Below, in pieces: positions 36,506-43,355 of a DNA stretch of 64,000 nt. The stretch lies in the NCBI GenBank assembly GCA_964291285.2, contig OZ219787.1, forward strand, positions 480,001 through 544,000, in the 5' to 3' direction. The number at the start of each line of letters is the position of its first letter. Position 1 is the first letter of the stretch. The notes beneath the pieces are model-generated. The model made no database searches, was not told the origin of the DNA, and worked only from the letters and a program-made list of their open reading frames with translations. Source of the DNA: Alphaproteobacteria bacterium. Lineage in GTDB: Bacteria; Pseudomonadota; Alphaproteobacteria; Bin95. A program made the position numbers and the translations under genes.

Positions 36506-38526
36506 TTATCCTCTGCGTTTCTGCTTTCTTTCCCCCCGCATTCCCGCTTCCAGCGGCGTGTGCATCTTTTCGTATAGAGCGAAGAGGTGCTCCACGCGCT
36601 CGCGTTCGGAGGCGAAGGGGGCCTTGCGGTACAGGCGGTCCACGGCGCGGTCGAGGCGGGTGTGGGCGCGGCGGAGGTTAGGGGGCATGAGGTCGGGATC
36701 GTAGAGGTCTGCGAGGGTTGCGTCCGGGTGGGCGGCGCGGGCGTCGAGGACTGCTTGGGCCAGCGGCTCCAGCTTCGACAGGTCCGCCTTGCCGGAGGCG
36801 AAGCCGGGCGGGGTCGGGAAGGTGTTGTAAACAAGGCCGATAGTATATCGGTAATCGCTCTTCAAACGTCCACCTATATGACGGACCCAAGCCATGTGCA
36901 TGGCCGAGGTAAGCAAACCGAATTGCCCAAGCGAGGTGTTTTCTTGAACACGAACGAGATTGCTGGGAATCGTCGGCGGCTTCAACCAGCCTATCGGCAC
37001 ATATTCGCGGCGTTCCGAGCTGGCTTCGGGGACAACAAGAAACGGGGTTTCGGGAATCGTCGTGAACGCGAATTCTGTCGGGAACGAGGCAAGGTCGCGA
37101 GTAGCTGGACGTTCGCTCTTCAATCGATAAGCTCGAACAGCGGCAATATGTTCCCGAACGCGGGGCAGACGAGCCAGCCGATCCGGCTTCACGTCGCGTA
37201 ACGAAAGAATCCAGCGATCACCGCCTTGGAGATATTCTCTTGCGCCGACAAAAGGCCGAAGGAAAATTCCGGCTTCCGGCTCCACAGCCAGAAGACTTTC
37301 ACGCTCTGCGGCATCGAATATTAGATTTCCGCCATCAATTGGCTGAGAGCCATAACGCAGAGGCGTGAACCCGTTTATCGGCCGACTCTCCTTCCGCACC
37401 GTAAGCTGCGGGTCGCCGAGGCCGCCGGCGTCGAACAGGTAGGGCGACAGCGCCCCGTGCCCACTTTCCTCCGGTTCGCCGTTCAGGTCGGGATAGGCGA
37501 ACAGGCGCTTTTCGGCCGGCGCGTCCTCCCGCCGGTCGAGGCCGAGGATGACGACATGCACATGCGCCTTGCCGCGCGCGTCCGAGCCCCAGGCGAAGGT
37601 GCGGTGGGCGAAGGCGATTTCCAGCTTGCAGCGGTCGAACAGGAGCGGCCATAGCTGGGCCACCTGCTCGCCCTGCGTGATCGAATTGGTGGCGACGAAG
37701 CCGATCCGCGCCCGGCCCGCGCGGGCATAATCCCCCGCCTTGAGGAACCATGCGGCGACATAATCCAGTGTGCCGCCGGACTTGCCCAAAGCCGCGATAC
37801 GGCGCACCTGCGCGCGCTGCTCCGGCGTCTGGAACTTCGCGCCGCCGAAGGGCGGATTGCCGAGCACGAACGAGCATTCGCCGGGCGGCAGCAACGCAGC
37901 CCAGTCCGTTTCCAACGCGTCGCCGTGGACGATATGCGGCGACTTCTCAAGCGGGATGCGAACGAAGGTCTGGCCGAATTCGAGACTCAGCCGGTTGTTC
38001 ATGATGTGGTCCATCATCCACAACGCGGTCTCCGCTATCCGGGCCGGGAACTCGCCAAGCTCGATGCCGTGGAACCGGTCCACATTCACCAGCGAAAGCG
38101 TGTCCGCCAGAACGTCGAACTGGCCGGTGGAATAGACCTCCTTCAGCACCTCGGTTTCGAGCTCGCGCAACTCCCGGTAGGCGATAATCAGGAAGTTGCC
38201 GCAGCCGCAGGCCGGGTCGAAAAAGCGCAGCTTTCCGAGCCGCTCCTGGAAGCGCAGCAGGCTCGGCCGACGCTGGCTGTCGCGCCGCGCCTTCAGGCGC
38301 TCGAACTCGGCCCGCAGCCCGTCCATGAACAACGGCTCGATCACCTTGAGGATGTTCTTCTCGGTGGTGTAATGCGCGCCCTGCACCCGGCGCTCCGCCG
38401 GGTCCATCACCGACTGGAAGAGCGCGCCGAAAATCGCCGGCGAGATGTTGGACCAGTCGAAGCGGCAGGCGTCCAGCAGGGCCTGGCGCATCGGCGCGTC
38501 GAAAGAGGGAATCCGGAGCGGCCCGT
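36506..38526 (-). pseudogene. MmeI-like type IIL restriction-modification enzyme, C-terminal fragment (methyltransferase plus target recognition domain)
   Basis: GAHYT, DPACGCGNFL (motif I), VLGNPPF (motif IV) and TLADLYDP. Truncated at its 5' end by the IS. Confidence 0.9.
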
Positions 38527-38907
38527 TGTAGGTGACGGTCGTAAAAGGCGCTTATTTGCTGGCGTTGCGCGTTTTTGCGGGGCGTGATGATCGCAGTGAT
38601 TGTGGTGCGGCGGTGTTTGTGACGGGGGCCTGGGACGGAAGGAGGGCGTAGCCCGACTGGAGTCGCCGGCCCCCGTCGCGTTGATATTTTCGCCTGCCGA
38701 GGGGAGGGTGTCCTGGCGCTGTCGGCGGGGGTCGCCGGGCTGCGCGAGGGGGTAGACTGGGGCTGCTGAGAACGATGCGGCGCCGGCCCCGTTTGCTAGG
38801 TGGCAACGACCGGCGCCGCACCCCCCGAGCCATGCAAGGCACGGCCCGTATGCGCAGTATCGTAGGCGTTCGGGCGTGGGTCCACCCCGTTCTCATCGGT
38901 CTTTGCG

Positions 38908-39342
38908 ATGAGGAACGCCGCCCGCCTGTTCACCTGCGCTTCGTGCCATCGCCAGGTTGTGCTGTGCCGGCGGTGCGACCACGGCAACATCTACTGCTCG
39001 CGTCCGTGCAGCGGCCGGGCGCGGCGGCGCTCGCTGCGCCTTGCCGGGCGTCGCTACCAGAACAGCCGGCGGGGCCGTCACAAGCATGCCGAACGCCAGC
39101 GGCGCTACCGCGAGCGCCGTCGCGTCCGTGCGCCTGAGGAGGGGCGCCGTGCGCAGAAAGTGACGCATCACCCTTTGACCCGTTCACCGCGCCGTCCTGT
39201 TGTGGCGGGCATGCCGGCGGGGCGCTCGGGAAGGAGGCCCTTCGGACCCGACCGTCCCGCCGGAGTGTTCCGCTGCGATCACTGCGGGCGGTTCTGCGCC
39301 CGGGCGGTCTATCCGGGCCTGCGCCCGGCGCGAAGGGAGTGA
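38908..39342 (+). CDS. Basic Cys-rich (Zn-finger-like) hypothetical protein upstream of istA
   Basis: CASC...CRRC...YCSRPC, Arg-rich helix and C-terminal CDHC; ends 1 bp before the istA ATG. Confidence 0.7.
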   Translation: MRNAARLFTCASCHRQVVLCRRCDHGNIYCSRPCSGRARRRSLRLAGRRYQNSRRGRHKHAERQRRYRERRRVRAPEEGRRAQKVTHHPLTRSPRRPVVAGMPAGRSGRRPFGPDRPAGVFRCDHCGRFCARAVYPGLRPARRE

Positions 39343-39343
39343 G

Positions 39344-40849
39344 ATGGCGATCGACCAGCAGACCCGGGCCGAGATCCTGCGGCTGTATTTTGCCGAGAAG
39401 TGGCGGATCGGCACGATCGCGCGCCAGCTCGGCGTCCACCACGGCACGGTCGAGCGCGCGGTGGCGGCCGCCGGGGCGCCCACGCCTGAGAAGCGGCGCA
39501 GATCTTCGATGATCGATCCGTTCCTGCCCTTCGTCCGCCAGACCCTGGCGGTCTGGCCGAAGTTGCCCTCCAGCCGGCTCTACCGGATGGCGGTCGAGCG
39601 CGGTTACCGGGGGTGCGAGAGCCACTTCCGGCGCATGATCGCGCCCGAGCGTCCGCGGCCGGTGGCCGAGGCCTATCTGCGCCTCAAGGCCCTGCCCGGC
39701 GAGCAGGCCCAGGTCGACTGGGCCCACTTCGGCAAGGTGAGGATCGGGCGTGCGGAGCGCCCGCTGATGGCCTTCGTGATGGTGCTCGGCCACTCGCGCC
39801 GCCTCTTCCTGCGCTTCTACCTCAACGCCGGGATGGACAACTTCCTGCGCGGCCATGTCGAGGCCTTCGAGGCTTGGCAGGGCGTGCCCCGCGAGCTCTG
39901 GTACGACAATCTGAAGAGCGTCGTGCTGGAGCGGCGCGGCGACGCCATCCGCTTCAATCCCCGGCTTCTCGACTTCGCAGGCGCCTACCGCTTCCTGCCG
40001 AAGCCGGTCGCGGTCGCCCGAGGCAACGAGAAGGGCCGCGTCGAGCGGGCCATACGCTATGTGCGCGACAGCTTCTTCGCCGCCCGCGCCTGGCGTGACC
40101 TCGACGATCTCAACGCCCAGGCCCGGGAGTGGTGCGAGGGCGTCGCCGCCGACCGCCCCTGGCCGGACGACCGCTCCCTCACCGTGAGCGAGGCCTTCGA
40201 GCGCGAGCGCGGCTCCCTGATGGCGCTGCCCGACGACCGTCCCCCCGTCGACGAGAGGGTCGAGGTCAGGATCGCCAAGACCCCCTATGCCAGGTTCGAC
40301 CTCAATGACTACAGCGTCCCGCATACCCATGTCCGGCGCACCCTCACCGTGGCCGCGACGCTGGAAGAGGTGCGCATCCTCGACGGCATGGAGGTCATCG
40401 CCCGCCATCCGCGCAGCTTCGACAAGGCGGCCCGCATCGAGAACCCCGAACACATTGAGGAGCTGGTCAGGCGCAAGCGTCACGCCCGCAGCCTGCGCGG
40501 GCAGAGCCGGCTGCTCCAGGCCGCGCCCAACAGCGAGCGCCTGATCGCCGAGGCCGCCCCCCGCGGCGCTTATATCGGCGCCACCGTCGCCGCCCTGCTG
40601 CGCCTGCTCGACCAATACGGCGCCGCCGAGCTCGAAGCCGCCATCGACGAGGCCCTCGAACGCGGCGTCCCCCATCCCAATGCCGTGCGCCTCAGCCTCA
40701 CACGGCGGCGCGAACTGCAGGACAGGCCGCCGCCGATCCCCATCGACCTGCCCAGGGACCCGCGCGTGCGCGACATCGCCGTGCGCGATCACGATCTCGG
40801 CGGATACGACGGGCTGGCCGGCTACCATGAAAAGGACAGCGAAGAATGA
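39344..40849 (+). CDS. istA: IS21 family DDE transposase
   Basis: N-terminal HTH, PGEQAQVDW, YDNLKS and EKGRVERAIRY. Confidence 0.95.
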   Translation: MAIDQQTRAEILRLYFAEKWRIGTIARQLGVHHGTVERAVAAAGAPTPEKRRRSSMIDPFLPFVRQTLAVWPKLPSSRLYRMAVERGYRGCESHFRRMIAPERPRPVAEAYLRLKALPGEQAQVDWAHFGKVRIGRAERPLMAFVMVLGHSRRLFLRFYLNAGMDNFLRGHVEAFEAWQGVPRELWYDNLKSVVLERRGDAIRFNPRLLDFAGAYRFLPKPVAVARGNEKGRVERAIRYVRDSFFAARAWRDLDDLNAQAREWCEGVAADRPWPDDRSLTVSEAFERERGSLMALPDDRPPVDERVEVRIAKTPYARFDLNDYSVPHTHVRRTLTVAATLEEVRILDGMEVIARHPRSFDKAARIENPEHIEELVRRKRHARSLRGQSRLLQAAPNSERLIAEAAPRGAYIGATVAALLRLLDQYGAAELEAAIDEALERGVPHPNAVRLSLTRRRELQDRPPPIPIDLPRDPRVRDIAVRDHDLGGYDGLAGYHEKDSEE

Positions 40850-41640
40850 CCGACACCCTCATGAACCGCGCCCGCGCGCTGGGCCTGCACGGCCTCCTCG
40901 CCCATTGGGGCGAAGTCGCGGAGCGCGACTGGCTCGCCTCCCTGATCGCGTGGGAAGAAGATGAGAAGCGCGCCCGAAGCCTCAAACGCCGCCTCGCCGA
41001 CGCCCGCCTCGGACAGTTCAAGCCGCTCGCAGACTTCGACTGGGACTGGCCAAGGCGCTGCGACCGCATGGCCGTCGAGGACCTCATGACCCTCGACTTC
41101 CTCAAGGAGGCCGCAAACCTCGTACTGGTCGGACCCAACGGCGTCGGAAAGTCCACCATCGCCGCCAATATCGCCCACCGCGCCGTCCTCGAAGGCCACA
41201 TCGTGCGCTTCGCAACCGCCGCCAGCCTGCTCGGCGAACTCGCCGCCATCGACTCCGACACCCTGCTCCAGCGCAGGCTGCGCTTCTACGCCCGACAGCA
41301 CCTGCTGGTCATCGACGAAGTCGGATATCTCTCCTACTCCAACCGCCACGCCGACCTGCTGTTCAACATCGTCTCAAGCCGCAGCCAGCAGAACTCAACC
41401 ATAATCACCACGAACCGCCCCTTCGCCGAGTGGAGCGAGGCCTTCCCAAACGCCGCCTGCCTGGTCGCCCTCGTCGACCGGCTCGTCCACAACGCCGAGA
41501 TCGTCGCCATCGACGGCGACTCCTGGCGCCGCAAGGAAGCCGAGGAACGTCAGAAGCAGCGCAGCGCCGAACGCCGCCGCCGGCGCGGACCGAAAGCCGG
41601 GCAAAGCACTGGAAAGGCGAACCCGGTCCCGTCGCCATAG
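40846..41640 (+). CDS. istB: IS21 helper AAA+ ATPase
   Basis: Walker A GPNGVGKS, Walker B LLVIDEVGY, TTNRPF.EW and DRLVH; 4-bp overlap with istA. Confidence 0.95.
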   Translation: MTDTLMNRARALGLHGLLAHWGEVAERDWLASLIAWEEDEKRARSLKRRLADARLGQFKPLADFDWDWPRRCDRMAVEDLMTLDFLKEAANLVLVGPNGVGKSTIAANIAHRAVLEGHIVRFATAASLLGELAAIDSDTLLQRRLRFYARQHLLVIDEVGYLSYSNRHADLLFNIVSSRSQQNSTIITTNRPFAEWSEAFPNAACLVALVDRLVHNAEIVAIDGDSWRRKEAEERQKQRSAERRRRRGPKAGQSTGKANPVPSP

Positions 41641-41642
41641 CC

Positions 41643-42515
41643 ATGCATCCCTCCCGCCCCCGCGAGCGGCGGGTGCGGGCCGAGAGCCTGCGGGGCTATC
41701 CCCTCGAACCCGTCGCCCGAGCCCTCGGCTACCGCAGCGATCCCGACAATGCCGTGCGCTGGAGACGGCCAGGATCGGTCCTCTCCATCAACCGCTTCAT
41801 GTTCTACGACCATCTGCGCGCAGAGGAGGGAGCCGGGGCTATCGAACTGGCGGTCCATGCGCTCGGATGCACCCCGCCGGACGCCATCGACTTCCTCGCC
41901 GAACTGTCCGACCTCTCAATGCCCCCAGGCGGCCGCCGGCAGGCGCCGGCCAAGGACCCCCGCTGGCCCAACCTCCGGCGATACCTCGTCGAGCGGCGCG
42001 GCCTCGCGGACGCGCTCGTCACCCTGTGCCGCGACCTCGGCCTGGTCCATGCCGACCCTCACGGCAACCCCGTGTTCGTCCGCCGAAACGCCGCCGGCGA
42101 GGCTACCGGCATCGAAACCGTCACCGCTGACCGCAAAACGACCGCGGGCGGCGGCTTCTGGATGTCCTGGGAGACCGAATGGCCACACGCCGTCATCCTG
42201 GCCGGCAACGCCCTCGACGCACTCTCCATCCTCTCCCTCCACCTCGGCCCGGTAAAACGCACCGAATGCGCCACCGTCTCCACCGGCGCCGTCGCCACCA
42301 AAGTCCCCAAATGGATCGAGGCATGGAACCCGCGCCTCATCTTCTGTGCATACGACGCCACCACAAACGGCGATCACGCCGCAAGGCGCCTCGCCCGCAA
42401 CGACACCAGAATCGTCCGGCTGCGACCCGCACTCGACAACCGGGACTGGAACGACATGCTCATCCGCGACCGAGCCGGCGAACCAATCGAAACCGATGAC
42501 CAACAGATCAACTGA
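41643..42515 (+). CDS. DUF3991/Toprim (primase-like) protein with degenerate catalytic motifs
   Basis: GAGAIEL..H, YLVERRGL, NPVF, NALDALS, CAYDATTNG and KDWND-like RDWND; starts 2 bp after the istB stop. Confidence 0.75.
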   Translation: MHPSRPRERRVRAESLRGYPLEPVARALGYRSDPDNAVRWRRPGSVLSINRFMFYDHLRAEEGAGAIELAVHALGCTPPDAIDFLAELSDLSMPPGGRRQAPAKDPRWPNLRRYLVERRGLADALVTLCRDLGLVHADPHGNPVFVRRNAAGEATGIETVTADRKTTAGGGFWMSWETEWPHAVILAGNALDALSILSLHLGPVKRTECATVSTGAVATKVPKWIEAWNPRLIFCAYDATTNGDHAARRLARNDTRIVRLRPALDNRDWNDMLIRDRAGEPIETDDQQIN

Positions 42516-42575
42516 AAAACCGCAACCGGCCGAAAAATGTCAGCGAATAGGCGCGCTCTGTAACCGTCGCTAACA

Positions 42576-43355
42576 CCCGTCGAACAGCGCGCCGTTGACA
42601 TGGGGAAAGCGCGCAAGGTCCTCGTCCAGCGCGGCGGAGCGCCCGTCTTCCGGCGTGTCGAGCACCTGGAACAGTTGCGAAAGCCAGGGGCCGAGATCGG
42701 CGCCGTCCTCGCCCGTGCGCGCCTCGATGAAGTCGAAGAAAATGTCGCGCGGCTCGAAAATGCCAGTGTCGTCCGCGAACAGGCAGAAGACGATGCGCAC
42801 GAGGAACCGCTCCAGGTCGCGGCCCCGGTAGCCGGTTTCCGCCAGCTTGTCGTGCAGCCGCCCGACCAGTTCGGCCGCCTCGATATTGGCCGGGTCCTGG
42901 TCGCGGAATGTCCGGCGCTGCACCCCCAGGATGAAGCCGAACTTCTCGACATGCGCGGGCAGGTCGGCAAGCGGAAAGGCCGCAACCTCCCGCTCGTCCA
43001 GATCGTGCAGCTCGAAGGTCTGGAAATCGCTCACCAGGATGTAGCGCGGACGCTCGCGTTCCGGCAGCGCGTCGAAATACTCCCCCGCCTGTTCGTATGC
43101 CGCTTTCAGGTCCCGCCCGGCGCTCTTCTGCTCGACGATCAGTACGCCCGGCCAGAACAGGTCGATGAAGCCGGAGCGATTGTCGAGCTTGGAGACGTGT
43201 TGCTCGTAGCGCGCAACGGTCCGCCGCCGCACTCCGAACACCCGGAAGAATGCGTTGTAGAAGCTCTGCGTCTCGCCCTTCTCGTAGGCCGCGTCCTTCC
43301 AGTCTTCGGCGAAGGCGGCGGCGCGGATGCGGACCTCGTTCCACGAAAGGCGCAT
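42576..43355 (-). pseudogene. MmeI-like type IIL RM enzyme, N-terminal fragment (PD-(D/E)xK nuclease plus helical spacer)
   Basis: MRLSWNEVR, IDLFWPGVLIVEQKS, RIVFCLFADDTGIF and FPHVNGALF. The frame runs into the IS end. Confidence 0.9.

Follow-up and report, generated by a model that had tools for sequence, protein, structure and literature searches.

Architecture of a four-gene IS21-family element

The window analysed here is a 64,000-nucleotide stretch of the genome of an alphaproteobacterium of lineage Bin95 (positions 480,001 to 544,000 of the forward strand of contig OZ219787.1, assembly GCA_964291285.2), and coordinates count from its first base. It contains a complete insertion sequence (IS) of the IS21 family in which the transposase gene istA and the helper ATPase gene istB are accompanied by two further open reading frames (ORFs): ORF1, encoding a Cys-rich protein, upstream of istA, and ORF4, encoding a protein with a primase fold, downstream of istB. 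The element and its parts are the following.

38527-42575: complete IS21-family element, 4,049 bp, with TGT...ACA ends and a CCCGT duplication
38522..38526: target-site duplication, left copy, CCCGT (from the sequence and an empty-site contig)
38527..38564, plus strand: left terminal inverted repeat, starting TGTAGGTGACGG; the terminus is common to all 22 copies in the genome
38908..39342, plus strand: ORF1, 144 amino acids (aa), Cys-rich
39344..40849, plus strand: istA, IS21-family DDE transposase, 501 aa from ATG
40846..41640, plus strand: istB, AAA+ helper ATPase, 264 aa
41643..42515, plus strand: ORF4, primase-fold protein, 290 aa from ATG
42538..42575, minus strand: right terminal inverted repeat, ending CCGTCGCTAACA; related termini occur in other genomes
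42576..42580: target-site duplication, right copy, CCCGT (from the sequence and an empty-site contig)

The four genes are tightly packed, with a 1-bp gap between ORF1 and istA, a 4-bp ATGA overlap between istA and istB, and a 2-bp gap between istB and ORF4. A Shine-Dalgarno-like AAGGGAG lies inside the last ORF1 codons, immediately 5' of the istA ATG. IstA matched NF033546 (244.4 bits, cut-off 160) and Mu-transpos_C_2 (2.2e-24), and IstB matched PF01695 (186.2 bits, 9e-55) and NF038214 (208.1 bits, cut-off 200). Read by eye, about 25 of the outer 38 bases of the two ends are complementary. The original prediction, made from the sequence of the window, had placed both extra ORFs inside the inverted repeats and target duplication of a 4,049-bp element with these same three junctions. 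Each point proved right: CCCGT flanks the element on both sides, the junctions are as described, and the length is exact to the base, in agreement with the empty site described below and with the 22 genome copies.

The element is recently and highly active

The window element is a recently, highly active IS, and the unit moves as one piece. In its own 6.1-Mb, five-contig genome there are 18 intact 4,049-bp copies with at least 99.7% identity, four more copies that are interrupted, and older remnants. Altogether just 7 sites vary among the 18 intact copies, two of which carry a 9-bp insertion in the leader. A 5-bp duplication flanks 15 of the 22 copies and is absent from 7, and the flanks of at least one copy pair match reciprocally, which points to inversion between copies. 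Complete genomes of the host genus hold 15-22 copies.

Contigs of the related runs X2 and X3 join position 38521 to 42576, skipping 4,054 bases that correspond to the element plus one copy of the duplication, with five letters that fit either side; filled junctions are present in run X1. The window insertion is therefore polymorphic and its borders are exact. Several runs from sponge, coral and marine samples contain small shares of the element's words, from which we make no habitat claim.

The four interrupted copies lie at G000:C1:646398-652147, C3:466531-472491, C4:400813-406562 and C1:1162814-1166997. Their interrupting insertions are about 1.7-1.9 kb long (with 7-8 bp duplications), except for one of 132 bp, and two of them fall in ORF1, at most 7 bp apart (element positions 641-655).

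Among ten copies whose flanks were examined in the window's own genome (L001-L010), several are in or beside genes that typify mobile or defence islands, one of them the MmeI-type gene of the window. In L004 the insertion exactly splits a Strawberry-notch-like helicase gene, the L002 copy is at a P4-type integrase gene, and the copies in L007 and L006 are near an IS66 TnpC gene and an AbiEii-like ATPase gene, respectively. Such placement may reflect tolerance rather than targeting. The G+C content of 35 duplicated target sites, from five element lineages, was close to that of the genome; a further 29 sites without a 5-bp duplication were left out of the survey, and the choice of terminal words may explain some of them. 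In a comparison aimed at fork-directed insertion, the orientation of the 22 copies followed no pattern relative to local and cumulative GC skew, which is weak and irregular in this rearranged genome. The element family is a prolific shaper of genomes, disrupting restriction-modification and other mobile-island genes.

The four genes are conserved as a unit

Comparison across genomes shows that the four genes are under purifying selection and that they move and evolve together. Scanning one genome per species with an ORF4 profile yielded 79 loci in about 21 assemblies, mostly labelled Alphaproteobacteria. The full colinear order ORF1-IstA-IstB-ORF4 was present at 64 of the 79, and the remaining 15 were affected by contig ends, internal deletions, frameshifts or insertions; at every one of the 79, istB or an istB fragment lay immediately 5' of ORF4. 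Across these loci, identity to the window proteins was 54-78% for ORF4, 63-90% for ORF1, 75-89% for IstA and 86-97% for IstB. Comparison of copies in five genomes gave related elements of 4,086-4,284 bp with TGT...ACA ends and 5-bp duplications. Median pairwise ratios of nonsynonymous to synonymous substitution rates (dN/dS) were 0.41 for ORF1, 0.34 for IstA, 0.26 for IstB and 0.56 for ORF4 (16 lineages, 120 pairs).

In a sample of relatives, 9 of the 16 further genomes taken from the host genus contained ORF4; none turned up in the 20 genomes sampled from two other genera of the family or in the 24 from other families. A search of 401 genomes across the phylum, made with a related query and seeking distant, motif-intact relatives of ORF4, returned the window's own genome alone, plus two weak matches.

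That the extra ORFs are not random cargo, as had been predicted, agrees with the conserved order, the relatives' own ends and duplications, dN/dS values below 1 and a history consistent with a single gain of ORF4. The search that the prediction had proposed, for genomes in which istAB is flanked by both ORFs, is answered by the 64 loci with the full order. Close istAB relatives that usually lack the ORFs had been named as the contrary outcome; both ORFs were present in all 16 lineages with IstA at least 75% identical, lineages that were sampled through ORF4, and a search with IstA gave one nested exception (L211). The proposal stands in part. A distinct IS21 subgroup with two conserved, coupled extra genes is supported, with the correction that ORF1 is no mark of the subgroup and belongs to a far larger clade. 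The proposed part of the two proteins in targeting or replication is a hypothesis, and the loss from ORF4 of the Toprim Glu and the second DxD Asp argues against enzymatic priming.

Internal-deletion derivatives (L028, L029 and L030 in G410; protein P0077) keep ORF1 and ORF4, with istA and istB largely deleted. The same breakpoint, joining IstA residue 78 to IstB residue 165, recurs at more than one locus, and this sharing suggests that non-autonomous copies moved in trans.

ORF1 belongs to a large IS21 clade

ORF1 has nine conserved cysteines in the alignment, six invariant ones in the pattern Cx2Cx6Cx2Cx6Cx3C and three in a C-terminal Cx2Cx3C. Between the two clusters lie a conserved arginine-rich stretch, RYQ...HAERQRRYR, and then a variable linker. 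In the structural model (predicted local distance difference test score (pLDDT) 75), beta-hairpins at the N-terminus are followed by a helical hairpin (residues 32-77), a disordered linker and, at the C-terminus, a small beta unit. ORF1 had no match in Pfam, NCBIfam, PADLOC (E ≤ 0.01) or PHROG and fell into unnamed clusters only in the protein Atlas. The YacG zinc finger was the best match in a fold search, but at E 2.7 it was taken as noise.

Relatives of ORF1 are numerous: a profile search of 1.84 billion cluster representatives returned 3,799 at E ≤ 0.001 and 2,539 at E ≤ 1e-10. When metagenomes were scanned with the ORF1 profile, more than 516 relatives turned up, and 80 loci were retained from these. 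At 67 of the 80, an IstA of at least 45% identity starts within 700 bp 3' of ORF1. The other 13 comprise eight with less than 600 bp of contig left, four with a ParB helix-turn-helix (HTH) gene followed by a distant IstA-IstB pair, and one, L140, with no IstA within the 3,974 bp after ORF1. Counting the loci that have room for IstA, ORF1 is linked to istA at 71 of 72. The four loci of the second kind (L121, 625-4404, and also L118, L120 and L164) are arranged as an ORF1 homologue, a 341-aa ParB-HTH/KorB-like gene, a distant IstA (about 30% identity) and IstB.

The IstA proteins of the ORF1-seeded metagenome loci are 53-66% identical to that of the window. Sixteen of these loci have a full IstB followed by 900 bp or more; ORF4 was found at one of them, L093, whose IstA is 76% identical. 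ORF1 is older than the four-gene subgroup, extends far beyond it and belongs to a large IS21 clade. In this clade a Cys-rich gene, conserved but still without a name, directly precedes istA, and it has about 3,800 cluster representatives. It is often overlooked in genome annotation: on two plasmids, ORF1 homologues upstream of istA are unannotated (L090, NC_014911.1, 1855-2286; L091, NC_006823.1, 1807-2001). Both the ORF1 and the ORF4 families deserve names in annotation libraries.

ORF4 has a primase fold and has lost catalytic residues

ORF4 matched PF13154 (DUF3991) at 28.0 bits (cut-off 24.5), and its Toprim_2 score of 19.3 bits was below the cut-off of 22.1; the Toprim fold is confirmed by the structural model, and relatives of ORF4 exceed the Toprim_2 cut-off. 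The order of domains is an N-terminus resembling a zinc-binding domain, DUF3991 and a Toprim domain with a degenerate active site. In the model (pLDDT 84.8, predicted template modelling score 0.84), residues 103-290 superimposed on the T7 primase fragment 1nui (Z 11.5, 165 residues, 3.3 Å) and on the DnaG polymerase domains 2au3 and 5guj (Z 10.8), and residues 5-91 on the DnaG zinc-binding domain 1d0q (Z 6.2). The best Foldseek matches were primases and Twinkle. The N-terminal domain is strongly conserved and resembles the zinc-binding domain of primases, and the alignment has no conserved Cys/His pairs in the strands of residues 28-64 that could serve as zinc ligands.

The Toprim glutamate has been replaced in most of the family: among 43 ORF4 members the position holds K in 18, G in 8, A in 8, E in 4, D in 2, N in 2 and T in 1, and the window copy has G. 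The second aspartate of the DxD motif is a threonine (DxT) in 38 of the 43. In nine aligned relatives from outside IS21 elements (three metagenome, three same-genus and three plasmid proteins), the glutamate is kept in all nine and DxD in eight. The losses are therefore derived and specific to the IS21-borne clade. In DnaG and T7 primase, as mutants have established, metal binding and activity depend on both residues. Given their loss, ORF4 is probably not a working primase.

No PADLOC model matched ORF4 at E ≤ 0.01. A search for natural fusions of ORF4 to longer proteins gave one match, a reverse-transcriptase chimera; three other candidates (P0030, P0075 and P0077) were rejected as frameshifted or deleted copies. 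For the predicted complex of IstB and ORF4 both scores were 0.00, where the mark was 0.32; obtained without controls, they count neither for nor against binding.

ORF4 was probably gained once and was lost secondarily in one relative

In a quick maximum-likelihood tree of IstA, rooted at the midpoint only, a branch with a Shimodaira-Hasegawa approximate likelihood ratio test (SH-aLRT) value of 100 sets the 16 four-gene rows apart from the 43 rows that have ORF1 only. A single gain of ORF4 suffices to account for this. The position 2 bp after istB in the window is the same in every lineage.

A search of the genus with IstA revealed a 3,175-bp relative, L211 (G412:C5, 3211-6385), with ORF1, istA and istB, from which ORF4 is precisely gone: the right terminal repeat lies 14 bp after the istB stop, the ends are intact and a 5-bp duplication, CCGCA, is present. 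Its IstA is nested in a supported clade (SH-aLRT 98) of four-gene elements, so ORF4 was lost secondarily. L211 is a single copy in the G412 genome, and the loss may postdate insertion.

The same genus also has more distant relatives of ORF4 (40-49% identity), placed in different surroundings. L189 (152-3401) and L190 (3-2188) are motif-intact and lie directly 3' of an AAA_25 helicase-like gene. They resemble a split primase-helicase replication module and may typify the source from which ORF4 was captured. A third such relative lies in a transposon. On the minus strand of L191 (G402:C305, 296-3260), TniA-like, AAA_22 ATPase and DUF3991-Toprim genes are tightly packed, with the Toprim gene overlapping the end of the ATPase gene by 4 bp and keeping both the Glu and the DxD. 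The first gene of L191 encodes rve, HTH_32 and Mu-transposase C-terminal domains, and the first two genes form a TniA/TniB-type pair. We found no convincing inverted repeats delimiting the L191 element.

Comparison with known systems

In its core the window element is like other members of the IS21 family (IS21, IS5376, ISPve1, ISPkr1), with an IstA DDE transposase and an IstB AAA+ helper encoded by overlapping genes, TG...CA ends, imperfect terminal repeats and a short target duplication, here of 5 bp. Target duplications in the family range from 4 to 8 bp. Unlike these members, the window element is 4,049 bp long, begins with an untranslated left leader of 381 bp, and has a conserved Cys-rich gene ahead of istA and a gene for a primase-fold protein behind istB. 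The family has been described as having two ORFs between terminal repeats (PMC10122671), and members captured in Paracoccus are reported as 2,469-2,503 bp long (PMC3281130). The element departs from the descriptive IS21 make-up of two ORFs in about 2-2.7 kb by its four conserved ORFs.

Closer are the ORF1-istA-istB elements on Alicycliphilus denitrificans pALIDE02 (NC_014911.1) and Aromatoleum aromaticum EbN1 plasmid 1 (NC_006823.1), whose IstA is 61% and IstB 62-63% identical to the window proteins. These have an ORF1 homologue of 143 aa with the same cysteine pattern, ending inside the istA start. Unlike the window element they lack ORF4, and an unrelated, conserved 70-aa hypothetical ORF overlaps the end of istB.

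ORF4 shares its domain order and fold with plasmid DUF3991-Toprim modules and with the DnaG and T7 gp4 primases. It differs from them in having neither the Glu, the second DxD Asp nor the zinc ligands, and in standing alone in an IS after an AAA+ gene. The primase/Toprim fold has non-catalytic precedents in animal Twinkle, whose primase domain is inactive, and in RecR with its Toprim domain, and both proteins are among the structural matches to ORF4 in the fold lists.

A DDE transposase and an AAA+ regulator, with a further protein encoded beside the ATPase gene, are also the components of Tn7 (TnsD/TnsE/TnsA), Tn5053 (TniQ) and Mu. Unlike those of the Tn7/Tn5053 type, the window proteins match the IstA and IstB models instead, and a family-model scan found no TniQ, TnsD, TnsE or TnsA homologue among them. 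A role of ORF4 in target choice is a hypothesis. As for ORF1, InsA of IS1 and OrfA of IS3 are small upstream regulators of transposase. ORF1 is like them in being small and encoded just 5' of the transposase gene, with zinc-finger-type cysteines and a basic helical region; it is unlike them in having no sequence or significant structural similarity to either, and no evident frameshift fusion with the transposase.

In the full-text literature, PMC7371123 included, we found no paper linking IS21 with DUF3991, with Toprim or with a Cys-rich upstream ORF, although a named ISfinder entry may exist. The subgroup and both accessory families appear to be undescribed, while the core machinery is that of an ordinary IS21 element. 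IS21 is presented as a structural model for control of a transposase by an AAA+ ATPase in a two-gene system (PMC10122671, PMC11208146). If ORF1 and ORF4 take part in transposition, they would add regulatory or targeting layers to this model system, and ORF4 would be a further replication protein recruited by a transposon. As it stands, one IS21 subclade has added a primase-derived protein minus its catalytic residues.

Proposed roles of ORF1 and ORF4

We propose that the window holds a four-gene IS21 element in which ORF1 is a nucleic-acid-binding regulator or subunit of transposition and ORF4 a non-catalytic accessory, a reading to which we assign a probability of about 0.7. IstA and IstB would carry out canonical IS21 transposition, as expected from their family membership. 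ORF1, as an arginine-rich protein of zinc-finger type, would bind nucleic acid and act as a regulator, by analogy with InsA of IS1, or as an extra DNA-binding subunit; translation of ORF1 and of IstA is probably coupled. ORF4 would have descended from the DUF3991-Toprim primase-like modules of plasmids and other mobile elements and been captured once, downstream of istB. It would then have lost the Toprim Glu and the second DxD Asp while keeping the fold and the N-terminal domain, and would no longer make primers. More likely, it is a DNA- or partner-binding accessory of a step controlled by IstB, with target choice, handling of the gapped strand-transfer product and regulation as candidate steps, and with DNA of single-stranded character, IstB and host replication proteins as candidate partners. 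A DnaG-like partner is suggestive in this respect, IstB being an ATPase of the DnaC type. ORF4 would benefit the element and not be strictly required for its persistence.

Several observations weigh against this proposal. ORF4 is under the weakest constraint of the four genes, and the persistence of L211 without ORF4 indicates that it is dispensable at least for persistence. The fold search with ORF1 gave nothing at E ≤ 0.001, and no clear motif emerged as a target consensus from the 35 duplicated sites. The second type of transposon with a Toprim gene comes from one contig, L191. RNA-library data yielded one 243-nt contig within the element (41994-42236), which possibly derives from DNA. Lastly, the acidic residues D192, D238, D268 and D271 in the Toprim region of ORF4 are still conserved, and on this sequence evidence may reflect residual catalysis.

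A bolder elaboration, which we regard as speculative and hold to be somewhat unlikely in full, would make ORF1 a zinc-finger regulator or IstA partner in thousands of IS21 lineages, and ORF4 a pseudo-enzyme that bridges the IstB complex to single-stranded DNA, forks or the replisome. ORF4 would then be a target selector or repair adaptor that evolved independently and was recruited at least twice, by IS21-type and by TniA/TniB-type elements.

The best-placed competitor of the non-catalytic accessory reading holds that ORF4, and possibly ORF1, is passenger cargo with no role in transposition, aiding conjugative or mobilisation spread or the host. The nearest relatives of ORF4 outside its family do point that way, being the DUF3991-Toprim parts of MobV relaxases and free-standing genes of conjugative plasmids (25-30% identity over the whole length), and relaxed constraint (dN/dS 0.56) and the persisting ORF4-less derivative would suit a passenger. 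We nevertheless consider cargo unlikely. ORF4 is packed 2 bp after istB in a position constant across lineages, was gained once and has been retained over a divergence of IstA down to 75% identity; it no longer has the catalytic residues on which a mobilisation primase would depend; and a related gene occupies the same place after the ATPase gene in another type of transposon (L191). PADLOC gives no match for ORF4, and for ORF1 the link to istA at all but one of the loci with room speaks against a passenger.

We think it quite improbable that ORF4 is still an enzyme, whether a primase that starts replication at the strand-transfer intermediate, making transposition replicative, or, like TnsA of Tn7, a Toprim nuclease cutting the 5' strands, with lysine or other residues substituting for the lost ones. 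Its Glu position varies over seven residues (K, G, A, E, D, N, T), which is unfit for a catalytic residue even though lysine is the commonest (18 of 43). Thr replaces the second DxD Asp in 38 of 43. The non-IS21 relatives retain both residues, which primase mutants mark as needed for metal binding and activity, and the template-reading domain has no zinc ligands. Set against these are the primase fold itself, the four acidic residues and a DWND motif kept in ORF4, the high copy numbers and the motif-intact relative in L191. That the extra ORFs are chance frames in 68% G+C DNA, which is rich in long spurious ORFs (51 of at least 50 aa overlap the region), or a one-off composite of this genome, is refuted by hundreds of homologues of each protein, dN/dS below 1, confident folds and an order and position conserved in about 21 other assemblies.

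Insertion site and leader

Three further features lie beside or within the element.

36506..38526, minus strand: split MmeI-family gene, C-terminal part (methyltransferase, target-recognition and C-terminal domains)
42576..43355, minus strand: split MmeI-family gene, N-terminal part (MmeI_N, MmeI_hel)
38619..38680, plus strand: strong hairpin and U-rich tail in the left untranslated region

The target of the insertion is an MmeI-family (type IIL) restriction-modification gene, which lies outside the element and is inactivated by it; runs X2 and X3 contain the gene unbroken, so its disruption is polymorphic in the population. Its left half matched PF20473 (2.5e-83), PF20466 (2.8e-64) and PF20467 (7.8e-28), and its right half PF20464 (3.7e-46) and PF20465 (1.3e-25). 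By coordinate arithmetic, the two halves are in a consistent frame once the 4,054 bases are removed.

A scan of the element for sigma-70 promoters gave 0 sites. The leader hairpin resembles a terminator and may insulate the element from external transcription. Another multi-copy IS21-type element of the genome has, in its left part, a 53-bp stretch about 85% alike to it. This stretch lies about 1.8 kb 5' of the element's IstB-like gene (34% identity) and occurs at no fewer than seven places, for example at G000:C1:140315, C3:1385213, C4:271757 and C5:3994.

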